DNA from: Candidatus Nomurabacteria bacterium RIFCSPHIGHO2_02_FULL_42_19
GTDB lineage: Bacteria > Patescibacteriota > Minisyncoccia > Phycocordibacterales > UBA9973
Length of the DNA: 64,000 bases
Direction of reading: 5' to 3'
Assembly (NCBI GenBank): GCA_001785615.1
Contig: MFUG01000016.1
Span: 13,752-77,751, forward strand
The notes beneath the pieces were generated by a model. The model saw only the letters and a program-made list of their open reading frames with translations, had not been told where the DNA came from and did no database searches. Both the position numbers and the translations under genes were made by a program. How positions within the stretch are numbered: the first letter of the stretch is position 1; the number at the start of each line of letters is the position of its first letter. Shown here one piece after another: positions 5,239 to 10,010 of this stretch.

Positions 5239-5418
5239 GGCGATCAGAACACGCTGTTAATGCCAGCGCCTGCAAGACGGGCACGGAATTCGCCCATCCC
5301 CTTTCCACTATCGCGCGCCAGCGCGCGACCGATTTTTTCGCAGAAGTTCACGATTGTCCGTCCTCTTGGACTCGAATCCCGAAGAAAAGCATAACTTTCT
5401 ACGGGACAGGCCAAGAAC
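5239..5418 (-). ncRNA. GC-rich hairpin-dense element downstream of the tRNA (candidate structured ncRNA, identity unknown)
   Basis: About 180 nt at roughly 60% GC in an AT-rich genome. It carries several perfect GC stems (tcgcgcgc/gcgcgcga) and tRNA-T-arm-like GGACTCGAATCC. It sits between the tRNA and the terminator with no credible ORF. Confidence 0.3.
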
Positions 5419-5493
5419 TGGTGCACGTGCCTGGACTCGAACCAGGAACCTGTCGCGTATAAGGCGAAAGCTCTACCATTGAGCTACACGTGC
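5419..5493 (-). tRNA. tRNA-Ile (anticodon UAU), CCA encoded
   Basis: Reverse complement is GCACGTG-TA-GCTC-AATGGTA-GAGC-T-TTCGC-CTTATAC-GCGAC-AGGTT-CCTGG-TTCGAGT-CCAGG-CACGTGC-ACCA. Clean 75-nt cloverleaf with a 27:43 mismatch. Central loop triplet is TAT. Confidence 0.7.
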
Positions 5494-7452: not shown

Positions 7453-7516
7453 ATAAAGAGGTTAGCACAAAAAATACAAAAATCAAAGAAGAAATATTTA
7501 TGCTAATATTAAGTTC

Positions 7517-7963
7517 ATGGCTCATTACGCCGAAAACAGAAAAGCGCGATTTAATTATGAAGTATTGGAAAAATACGAGGCGGGTATTGAGCTTTTCGGT
7601 ACGGAAGTAAAGTCAGTGCGAGGAGGGCAGATGTCGCTCGAGGGTGCCTTCGTGATTGTTCGCGGTGGAGAAGCGTATTTAATTAATGCAAATGTTCCTT
7701 CATATCAGCCGAAAAACGCACCGAAGGACTACGATCCTTTACGCAATAGAAAACTTTTACTGACAAAAAAGGAAATTTCCACACTTTCGGGTAGCGAGAA
7801 AAATAAAAGTTTGACAATTGTGCCTATTTCAGTGTATAATAAAGGGAGGAAGATAAAGGTAGAAATTGCACTCGTGAAAGGGAAGAAAAAATATGACAAG
7901 CGTGAGAGTATAAAGAAGCGCGACACGGATCGTGAGATACGAAGAGAGTACAAAGCACGTTGA
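7517..7963 (+). CDS. smpB: SsrA-binding protein SmpB
   Basis: ENRKARFNYEVLEKYEAGIELFGTEVKSVR is the canonical SmpB N-terminus. Ends with TGA stop. Confidence 0.92.
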   Translation: MAHYAENRKARFNYEVLEKYEAGIELFGTEVKSVRGGQMSLEGAFVIVRGGEAYLINANVPSYQPKNAPKDYDPLRNRKLLLTKKEISTLSGSEKNKSLTIVPISVYNKGRKIKVEIALVKGKKKYDKRESIKKRDTDREIRREYKAR

Positions 7964-7975
7964 AAATAGAAACAT

Positions 7976-8373
7976 GGGGATGCAAGGCCTAGACAGTTGG
8001 CCTCTTGCCCTTGATGCATACCGAGCATGGGCGTAATCTCGTAAAACTTCGCTCAATAGCTTAATTGCAAAATTAGCTTCCAAAGTGAAGGCAATTGCTT
8101 CTCCGTACTTCGGTATGGGTGAGTTTGCTTTCGCTCACGTTTCCGCTTCGGCTTAAGCGTGTGTCTCTCTTATTGACTTCCGATAAATAAGACGGGCATA
8201 ACATTATCGGGATAGCCCCGACGCGGCTTCGCCGTCGGGGCAAAACATAGAAGATCGATTGAAAAATATTTGGCGCGTTTCTTAATTTTTTAATTTAAAC
8301 CTGCAAGCGCGCTATGTATGTAGATTTTAAGGCAGGCACCTTCTGCACGGGGATTCGATTTCCCCCATCTCCA
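7976..8373 (+). ncRNA. ssrA: tmRNA (ssrA)
   Basis: 5' GGGGAUG pairs with 3' CAUCUCC-A, including the G3:U70 alanine identity pair. The 3' T-arm is GGGGA-TTCGATT-TCCCC. GAUGCAUACCGAG matches the conserved PK1 region (E. coli GGUGCAUGCCGAG). In-frame tag ORF GCA..GCT TAA gives AKLASKVKAIASPYFGMGEFAFAHVSASA*. Lies immediately downstream of smpB. Confidence 0.8.
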
Positions 8374-8385
8374 CAATCATTGGTA

Positions 8386-8413
8386 TTGACATCTTTTTTG
8401 GGTTTGCTATACT
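8386..8413 (+). promoter_or_regulatory. sigma70-like promoter (TTGACA-16nt-TATACT) for the relB-like gene
   Basis: TTGACA at 8386-8391 and TATACT at 8408-8413, about 28 nt upstream of the ATG at 8442. Confidence 0.5.
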
Positions 8414-8441
8414 GTATATATATTAGATATAAAAAAGATAT

Positions 8442-8720
8442 ATGACCACACAAGTAATTTTTAGAATAGATAAGAAGATTAAAGCCCAAGCTCAAAAGAA
8501 AGCCAAAGGTAGCGGTTTAACCTTTTCTGATATTTTGCAAATGGCGACTTATGCCTATGTTAAAGACGACTTTGAGCCCGTGTTAATGCGAAAAGAGGAA
8601 AGATTTAACGACAAAACGGCTCGCGAAATTCATTCAGCCCTTTCCGATATTGCTAAAAACAAAAATCTATCCCGTAGTTTTTTCTCTGTGAAAGAAGCTA
8701 CAAAATATCTCAGTAAATAA
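8442..8720 (+). CDS. RelB/DinJ-family antitoxin
   Basis: MTTQVIFRIDKKIKAQAQKKAKGSGLTFSDIL matches the DinJ/RelB RHH pattern (xxVxxRIDxxxKxxAxxxxxxxGLTxSd). Stop is 1 nt before the toxin ATG. Confidence 0.75.
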   Translation: MTTQVIFRIDKKIKAQAQKKAKGSGLTFSDILQMATYAYVKDDFEPVLMRKEERFNDKTAREIHSALSDIAKNKNLSRSFFSVKEATKYLSK

Positions 8721-8721
8721 A

Positions 8722-8989
8722 ATGATTATTGTTTTTCAAGGGATTTTTGAGAAGAAATGAAGGAAGCTCTCACCGAAGATAAAAAAACAGTTTTACAACC
8801 GACTAGTTTTATTTCAAAAGAATAGATTTGACCCAATCCTAAATAACCACAGAATTGAAAAAAGATTTCCGGACTGTCGAAGTATTAATATAACAGGTGA
8901 CTACCGTGCTATTTTTAAGGAAGATAAAGAAGACGTCATTTCTTTCATCAATATCGGCACACATTCGGAATTATACTAGTAATACTAGT
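8722..8989 (+). pseudogene. RelE/ParE-family toxin with in-frame TGA at codon 13 (probable inactivated toxin)
   Basis: Single frame reads MIIVFQGIFEKK-TGA-RKLSPKIKKQFYNRLVLFQKNRFDPILNNHRIEKRFPDCRSINITGDYRAIFKEDKEDVISFINIGTHSELY*. The C-terminal GDYR(A)I(F)...I..IGHR/Y signature of RelE/ParE is intact. TGA at 8758-8760. Confidence 0.7.
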
Positions 8990-9066
8990 GAGGACGGTTC
9001 TCGCTAACCAAAAATCTCATATATATAAATTTCTTTGCAACTTTTTTAGAGTGATTTTTCCCCTAT

Positions 9067-9387
9067 CTAGGAAATAACCTCGTCTCCGTTTTGTCCCATA
9101 CTATTTCTATATTCTCCAACAGCTTGATGGGTTCCTATTGCAGTTACAACATCTTTAATTGACAATGATGTATTTAATCGTTCAAATTCCCTAACGTGTT
9201 CCTTTAATCGTTTGACTAATTCTCCAACAGAAGAAGTCCTTTCAACCCCAAGAGTTTGGTACATTAATCTCAAGTTGCTCTCAAGTCGTACAACTTCTCC
9301 AACCTTTAAACCCTTAAGACCAAGAACTTCCATAGAGATTTTTTGTTCACCACCTTTTGAACCTGGCGCACTGTTGAATTGATTCAT
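9067..9387 (-). CDS. hypothetical protein (106 aa)
   Basis: Clean ORF with no recognised motif. Confidence 0.4.
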   Translation of the reverse strand: MNQFNSAPGSKGGEQKISMEVLGLKGLKVGEVVRLESNLRLMYQTLGVERTSSVGELVKRLKEHVREFERLNTSLSIKDVVTAIGTHQAVGEYRNSMGQNGDEVIS

Positions 9388-9426
9388 GGTTAAATTATAG
9401 ACCTTGCTATAAAGGTGTCAAGTTGT

Positions 9427-9455
9427 TGACTTTAAGGCCTAAATACGCTATTATC
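9427..9455 (+). promoter_or_regulatory. sigma70-like promoter TTGACT-17nt-TATTAT upstream of infC
   Basis: TTGACT at 9427-9432, 17-nt spacer, TATTAT at 9450-9455. Confidence 0.55.
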
Positions 9456-9482
9456 CCCTAGTCAAAGCTTTATATACGTCAC

Positions 9483-10010
9483 TTGCGAGAAAGAATTAAC
9501 AATCAAATACGGGCTAAGGAACTTCGAGTTATAGACAGTGAAAACAAAAATCTCGGTGTTTTAAGCATAAAAGATGCCCTGGAATTAGCGCAAAGAGAGG
9601 GCTTGGACTTGATTGAAATATCGCCGAATGGCAACCCGCCGGTTGCCAAGGTAATGAATTTCGGCAAGTATCAGTACGAGGTAAGCAAAAAATTAAAAAA
9701 GGCCAAGGCCGGAGCCAAGTCCACCGAAACCAAGTCCGTCCAGGTAAAGATAGGCACCGGAGACCACGATTTGGAACTAAAAGCGAAAAACGCTTCAAAA
9801 TGGCTAAAGGAAGGACATCGAATTAAAATTGAACTCTTTCTGGCCGGACGCACGAAGTACATGGAGGAAAAGTTTTTAAGAGAGCGGTTAGACAGAGTAA
9901 TGCATTTGATTACTGAAGATTACAAAGTATCGGACTCATATAAAAGGGGGCCGAAGGGATTATTTATAACGATAGAAAAAGTCGTCGCCAGGGCGGGGCA
10001 AGCAAAATAA
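9483..10010 (+). CDS. infC: translation initiation factor IF-3 (non-ATG start, TTG at 9483 or an upstream AUU/AUA-type codon)
   Basis: NNQIRAKELRVIDSENKNLGVLSIKDALELAQREGLDLIEISPNGNPPVAKVMNFGKYQYE is classic IF-3. infC commonly uses atypical start codons. Confidence 0.9.
   Translation: MRERINNQIRAKELRVIDSENKNLGVLSIKDALELAQREGLDLIEISPNGNPPVAKVMNFGKYQYEVSKKLKKAKAGAKSTETKSVQVKIGTGDHDLELKAKNASKWLKEGHRIKIELFLAGRTKYMEEKFLRERLDRVMHLITEDYKVSDSYKRGPKGLFITIEKVVARAGQAK

Follow-up and report, generated by a model that had tools for sequence, protein, structure and literature searches.

The 64,000-nucleotide stretch of DNA analysed here (the window) carries a chromosomal cassette that can be assigned by its sequence to the type II toxin–antitoxin modules of the DinJ/RelB–YafQ kind. 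Its toxin gene has very probably been inactivated by a substitution that turned codon 13 into a stop, with the antitoxin and the promoter retained. Because the toxin frame is interrupted, the locus is a decayed member of a type II module and not a working one. An initial annotation, made from the sequence, had read the pair as a recently inactivated toxin beside an intact antitoxin, and this reading is supported by the reality of the stop, by the function of TGA as a stop codon, by the otherwise clean toxin frame and by the undamaged antitoxin and promoter. The cassette contains the following elements.

8384–8983 (+): toxin–antitoxin cassette of 600 bp, made up of promoter, operator-like repeats, antitoxin and toxin pseudogene
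8386–8413 (+): strong sigma-70-type promoter-like site, TTGACA and TATACT spaced by 16 nt, with TG upstream of the second hexamer (11 of 12 consensus positions)
8425–8431 and 8436–8442 (+): AGATATA as a direct repeat, the two copies 11 nt apart; they follow the −10 hexamer, and the second extends into the start codon
8442–8720 (+): RelB/DinJ-family antitoxin, intact, 92 aa (Pfam RelB E 2e-6, above cut-off; GenBank OGI75655.1, from bin RIFCSPHIGHO2_02_FULL_42_1x)
8595–8627 (+): approximate recombination junction in the antitoxin gene, between the DNA-binding and toxin-binding parts; blastn break points agree
8722–8979 (+): YafQ/RelE-type toxin pseudogene, identified by translation, family matches and 277 homologs of 84–85 aa
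8758–8760 (+): in-frame TGA at toxin codon 13, which falls within helix alpha-1 (residues 7–15 in the family model)

Layout and family of the gene pair

The antitoxin frame opens with an ATG at 8442 and runs for 92 codons to a TAA at 8718–8720. Base 8721 is the sole spacer nucleotide, and the toxin frame then extends from an ATG at 8722 over 85 codons to a TAG at 8977–8979. The 1-nt distance between the genes and the TGA at 8758–8760 as codon 13, both put forward in the initial annotation, are borne out by this spacer and by translation, respectively. Its coordinates for the module were likewise exact except for the end, given as 8989, which overshoots the last base of the toxin stop (8979) by 10 nt. 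The same arrangement, with the antitoxin first, both genes co-directional and a 1-nt spacing, was seen in the related loci L011, L029, L088 and L102. With no Shine–Dalgarno sequence specific to the toxin start and the antitoxin stop just 1 nt before it, the two genes are probably translationally coupled. No paralogs of the pair were found within the 64-kb window.

Profile searches agreed with the relB/dinJ and relE/parE families named in the initial annotation. The antitoxin scored 27.9 bits against Pfam PF04221 RelB (cut-off 22.4), and the conceptual toxin protein scored 23.8 against PF05016 ParE_toxin (cut-off 23) and 30.8 against NCBIfam TIGR02385 RelE_StbE (cut-off 27.9). Matches under the cut-off were obtained for the antitoxin with TIGR02384 RelB_DinJ (28.1 bits; cut-off 45.65) and, by a small amount, for the toxin with PF15738 YafQ_toxin (26.8; cut-off 30). 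More precisely, the toxin is YafQ/HP0894-like rather than ParE-like.

A search of 5.8 billion proteins returned 277 homologs of the toxin, nearly all 84–85 aa long and covering 100% of the query. The best of these, P0001, was 78% identical over 100% of the query (E 2e-37). An AlphaFold model of P0001, which represents this homolog and not the window product, was built from a 60-sequence alignment and reached a mean pLDDT of 95. It comprises beta-1 (residues 2–5), alpha-1 (7–15), alpha-2 (18–33) and three strands (52–80). When the model was compared with the PDB using Foldseek, the top-ranking structures were HP0894 and YafQ of E. coli and V. cholerae (TM-scores of 0.7–0.8), followed by RelE and YoeB, and the range over all these hits was 0.66–0.81. 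Members of the toxin family are similar to YafQ and presumably ribosome-dependent mRNA endonucleases.

Among solved structures, Helicobacter pylori HP0894 of the HP0894–HP0895 pair (PDB 1Z8M, 4LTT) was the best match in both sequence and fold (profile E 1e-5, Foldseek E 7e-6). The C-terminal G-(S/T)-H-S-E-L-(F/Y) motif is common to both, and HP0894 has a Phe aligned to codon 13, but it is only ~22% identical, belongs to a different phylum and is encoded by an intact gene. The DinJ–YafQ pairs of E. coli (PDB 4ML0, 4Q2U) and V. cholerae (9LEW) have the same gene order, antitoxin first and the genes closely apposed. The antitoxin here is a RelB/DinJ ribbon-helix-helix protein, as in those systems, and the fold of the toxin family is shared with YafQ (TM-scores 0.74–0.81). 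In contrast, sequence identity to YafQ is ~20%, and the toxin here is interrupted at codon 13. We take the catalytic residues of YafQ to be H50, H63, D67, H87 and F91. In a profile alignment to 4ML0_B, the family residues H43, D60, H81 and Y85 correspond to YafQ H50, D67, H87 and F91, while the counterpart of H63 is N56 in the whole family; four of the five listed positions therefore have kept counterparts.

The stop codon in the population and in the toxin frame

An antitoxin of identical sequence occurs on 23 public contigs. We examined ten of these from ten assemblies (L001–L010), together with L178, which encodes a two-residue variant of the antitoxin; the assemblies covered were ENA MEGAHIT, JGI and ANAN16 scaffolds. 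The same TGA was present in 11 of 11 contigs from 11 different assemblies. L178 and L010 were ~99.1% identical to the window over the common stretch, and L010 combined a different promoter allele with an inverted smpB that was 89% identical on the upstream side. The TGA allele is thus fixed in the sampled aquifer population and occurs in at least two structural haplotypes. An error of sequencing or assembly, with a sense codon as the true codon 13, is the default worry for a lone in-frame stop in a metagenome-assembled genome, and nothing positive was found in its favour. We rejected it and leave it a negligible chance, as the separately assembled contigs sharing the TGA include variants with nearby SNPs or a rearranged upstream context, and gene callers passed over the toxin in those assemblies. 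Confirmation of the stop, advised in the initial annotation, was in this way obtained by comparing independent assemblies.

Population SNPs were few in the gene pair: a single synonymous one in the toxin frame, and one synonymous and two adjacent non-synonymous ones in the antitoxin. Across the contigs, SNPs were concentrated in the promoter and towards contig ends, with positions 8433–9980 nearly invariant, a variation too low and too clustered for a constraint test. In the 5.8-billion-protein collection, gene-called toxins were at most 78% identical, and the next antitoxin stood at 80%. As the identical antitoxin is found on 17–23 contigs of the same collection, undamaged copies of this toxin allele are rare, if they exist at all.

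The 12 residues upstream of the stop and the 72 downstream align to intact homologs in one frame. Because both flanks are homologous to intact toxins in the same frame, the lesion is a base substitution and not a frameshift, and the frame is not a chance ORF. Apart from the stop, 35 of 36 invariant or near-invariant columns of the family are kept, the exception being the conservative V45I, which upholds the earlier remark that the C-terminus past the TGA is well conserved. One toxin residue (S74) is absent from 41 homologs, no more than is seen in intact members. The toxin branch is modestly longer than those of its sisters and not clearly beyond those of intact relatives. With the stop as the only visible lesion, the frame agrees with an inactivation that is recent on the timescale of the family; the term is relative, since the allele is already fixed in the sampled population and present in two structural haplotypes. 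Continued selection on a readthrough product fits a stop as the only lesion equally well.

In the homologs, codon 13 encodes mostly Phe, and otherwise Leu, Tyr or Ile. The closest homologs use TTT or TTC, which are two steps from TGA; the family also has TTA (Leu), one step away, and the pair L-R at toxin positions 13–14 occurs in it, so that the ancestral codon is not fixable.

Decay of the toxin and rival readings of the TGA

Translated in code 11, the window contains 74 ORFs of at least 100 aa, with a coverage of 81.7%. Seven of the 74 end in TGA, among them smpB (7517–7963), as the initial annotation had noted in calling TGA a genuine stop, and two of these TGA stops sit, by their coordinates, in a 4-nt overlap with the start of the next gene. 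When TGA was read as sense there were still 74 ORFs, nothing was merged and coverage was 82.5%. FtsH, EF-Tu, EF-G and SecY are full length in code 11 and free of internal TGA codons, a result that runs counter to the conserved in-frame TGAs by which an alternative code had been expected to reveal itself. The closest toxin homolog has TGA as its own stop. Among 80 related metagenomic loci, compared as the initial annotation had proposed for orthologs, 79 had uninterrupted toxins and none had a stop at codon 13, which usually encoded Phe, Leu or Tyr.

No stable structure was predicted after the stop; the segment 8745–8835 had a minimum free energy of −8 kcal/mol (z = 0.61), and 145 of 200 shuffled sequences folded at least as well. 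Downstream of the stop the toxin frame contains no ATG, GTG or TTG and only the weak codons ATA, ATT and ATC, while an ATG at 8757 that overlaps the TGA opens a 22-codon ORF in another frame. Selenocysteine insertion and stimulated readthrough were rejected for want of a hairpin after the stop, and a downstream restart for want of an in-frame ATG, GTG or TTG. The initial annotation had offered a recoding site as its alternative, and the 80 loci free of a stop at this codon, the missing structure and the missing restart codon all speak against it.

Some Patescibacteria lineages reassign UGA. The organism, which the relatives of its SmpB place in Candidatus Nomurabacteria (Paceibacterota), belongs to the Patescibacteria, and this is what favours recoding of the TGA, either by an alternative code (compare Gracilibacteria and Absconditabacteria) or as selenocysteine. 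The chance of recoding is nevertheless vanishingly small: an alternative code was rejected on the use of TGA as a stop by seven window genes, with overlaps onto the next start among them, and on the absence of any coding gain or of internal TGAs in the long conserved genes, and for selenocysteine there is no SECIS-like hairpin and the homologs align Phe, Leu or Tyr, in no case Cys, to this codon. UGA is also the leakiest bacterial stop. A leaky stop, where low-frequency readthrough, likeliest by tRNA-Trp, would give a little full-length toxin and an attenuated but working module, draws on several observations: the lesion stands alone in an otherwise fully conserved frame, the stop codon used is TGA instead of TAA or TAG, the allele has survived in two structural haplotypes, and position 13 accepts Phe, Tyr, Leu and Ile in homologs, so that Trp, inserted by a near-cognate tRNA, would count as a conservative substitution for Phe, Tyr or Leu. 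We still consider such leakiness unlikely, because the stop is conserved in 0 of 80 related loci and 0 of 277 homologous proteins, no stimulatory structure lies downstream, and the other stop in the family falls at a different codon beside an intact sister allele and has the look of random decay. Moreover, the entire 1.5-kb region varies so little that the clean frame needs no selection to explain it. That the UGA has been kept as a throttle, with rare readthrough by tRNA-Trp supplying a trickle of W13 toxin, the module tuned down and the allele maintained for that reason, is less likely again. Controlling toxin dose by a stop that is leaky by design would be unusual; no result here points in that direction.

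Production of a truncated toxin from a non-canonical start further downstream, for example the ATA at codon 20, is very unlikely. The sequence AGGAAG at 8761–8766 resembles a ribosome-binding site, and an ATA follows 12 nt on, at 8779. However, ATA serves very poorly as a start codon, a product begun there would be missing beta-1 and alpha-1 of a compact 85-residue fold, and no homolog backs such a start as a natural form.

We therefore return to knockout of the toxin as the preferred explanation. Ribosomes that finish the antitoxin would restart at the ATG 1 nt on and halt after 12 residues. The product would be a 12-aa peptide only, corresponding to beta-1 and half of alpha-1, and no active mRNA endonuclease would be made. 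The antitoxin would persist since loss of the toxin first is the only non-lethal order of decay, and it could retain a role in repressing its own promoter or in counteracting related toxins that circulate at the locus. The same route was taken independently at another site: in L062 (668–919) a CGA to TGA change at codon 23 of the toxin, beside an intact antitoxin, is the sole difference from the intact L049 (2501–2752), which comes from another assembly.

A nonsense-bearing toxin with a surviving antitoxin is the expected order of toxin–antitoxin decay and is ordinary biology. Orphan antitoxins and degrading toxin–antitoxin pairs are common in other bacteria (PMC7192599), precedents that back the earlier statement that an orphaned antitoxin with a crippled toxin is typical of such decay. 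Among the orphan antitoxins and degraded loci of Klebsiella pneumoniae, as here, an intact antitoxin stands beside a dead or absent toxin, and the explanations put forward for orphan antitoxins are a decay remnant, anti-addiction and a role as transcriptional regulator (PMC7192599). Unlike those loci, the toxin remnant described here is complete but for one codon, and its host is an uncultured ultra-small groundwater bacterium. The locus thus illustrates cleanly, with verification across the population, how toxin–antitoxin decay begins in such an organism. It has little importance beyond annotation, where the antitoxin (A3C67_02590) appears orphan to readers of the GenBank record: the locus tags pass straight from it to A3C67_02595 for the next gene, leaving the toxin remnant untagged.

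Mosaic cassette and the tmRNA–infC slot

Homology to other alleles begins at 8384, 8385 or 8386 (L102, L010, L173–L177, L011) and, for L011, ends at 8983. The promoter hexamers are conserved in L010, L102, L175, L178 and L011. The two AGATATA repeats form a putative operator for the ribbon-helix-helix domain of the antitoxin. They are kept in L010, L102, L175 and L178, which have the same antitoxin N-terminal domain; in L011 a different palindrome replaces them and the N-terminal domain is of another type. Such co-variation of repeat and N-terminal domain is what would be expected of an operator. In L174, 47 nt (~215–262) that include a short inverted repeat (TATGACCC...GGGTCATA) are inserted downstream of the operator-like repeats, ahead of the antitoxin start.

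Identity to the two types of allele changes along the module as follows.

Antitoxin residues 1–52: 94–98% identity to L102/L174, 46% to L011
Antitoxin residues 53–92: 43–45% identity to L102/L174, 70% to L011
Toxin: 51–53% identity to L102/L174, 78% to L011

Since the identity switches inside the antitoxin, the module is a recombinant of two allele types, with promoter and DNA-binding domain from one and toxin-binding tail and toxin from the other.

The cassette begins 8 nt past the tmRNA gene, in a slot before infC that contains these further features.

7976–8376 (+): tmRNA gene (ssrA), Rfam RF00023, 108.6 bits, full length 1–374
9057–9068 (+): 12-nt copy of the tmRNA 3' end, 11 of 12 positions matching 8359–8370 (T-arm/acceptor part); repeat family D8, with a rough chance estimate of ~0.08
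9067–9387 (−): 106-aa ORF, convergent with the cassette and belonging with it to one lineage-specific insertion

L099 lacks the equivalent of window positions 8377–9425 and has the infC promoter right behind the tmRNA gene, so the region comprising the cassette and the 106-aa ORF is lineage-specific. The same slot in related Nomurabacteria holds alleles of the same toxin–antitoxin family (L102, L173–L177, L028/L029, L088), all with intact toxins. The tmRNA–infC slot looks like a hotspot, or swap site, for toxin–antitoxin alleles and other conflict genes in Nomurabacteria.

A tmRNA-3'-like remnant also follows the toxin in L102 (~5340–5365, − strand; 20 of 23 positions). Such remnants hint at att-like scars of integration at the tmRNA gene, and the repeat in the window could be due to chance. 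No integrase-sized ORF was present between the tmRNA gene and infC in the window, no relatives were found among IMG/VR viral contigs, GenBank phages and PLSDB plasmids, and PADLOC gave no match. An origin from a mobile element was rejected on the lack of viral, phage or plasmid relatives and of a PADLOC match. Window positions 8990–9010, just past the toxin, also resemble the tmRNA 3' end.

The 106-aa ORF is preceded by a promoter at 9421–9394 with a perfect consensus (12 of 12), and its −10 hexamer ends 7 nt before the ATG, a spacing which suggests that the transcript may be leaderless. The protein had no family match; among 5.8 billion proteins it retrieved only itself, and among 1.8 billion representative proteins itself and one weak repetitive match, so the reading of the cassette gains nothing from it. 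No terminator was predicted between this ORF and the toxin–antitoxin operon.

Other contents were observed in the slot of further loci. L115 (7969–9910, −) has an AbiEii-type type IV toxin gene with an upstream partner, and L098 (7157–8848) and L103 (8097–9821) each have a Cys-rich protein of ~570 aa with no Pfam match. The tmRNA gene at 7976–8376 was not called by ARAGORN; its 3' end reads ...CTCCACAA, and CCA is not encoded.

In about half of the close Nomurabacteria relatives (L102, L173, L028/L029, L088, L092–L096 and others) the smpB–tmRNA block is inverted with respect to ftsH and infC, as it is in the co-occurring L010, which has the same TGA allele. The break points of this ~900-bp inversion, which is recurrent or polymorphic, fall at 7499/7500 and 8383/8384, and no mediating repeats were found. 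In L004, at the equivalent of window position 7576, a Tyr codon of smpB is replaced by a stop amid a cluster of SNPs, and the gene caller shortened smpB to 109 aa; this stop may be an assembly artefact of strain mixing. Elsewhere in the window, positions 5419–5493 (−) encode a tRNA-Ile with the anticodon TAT (UAU), an uncommon bacterial way of reading AUA without lysidine modification.
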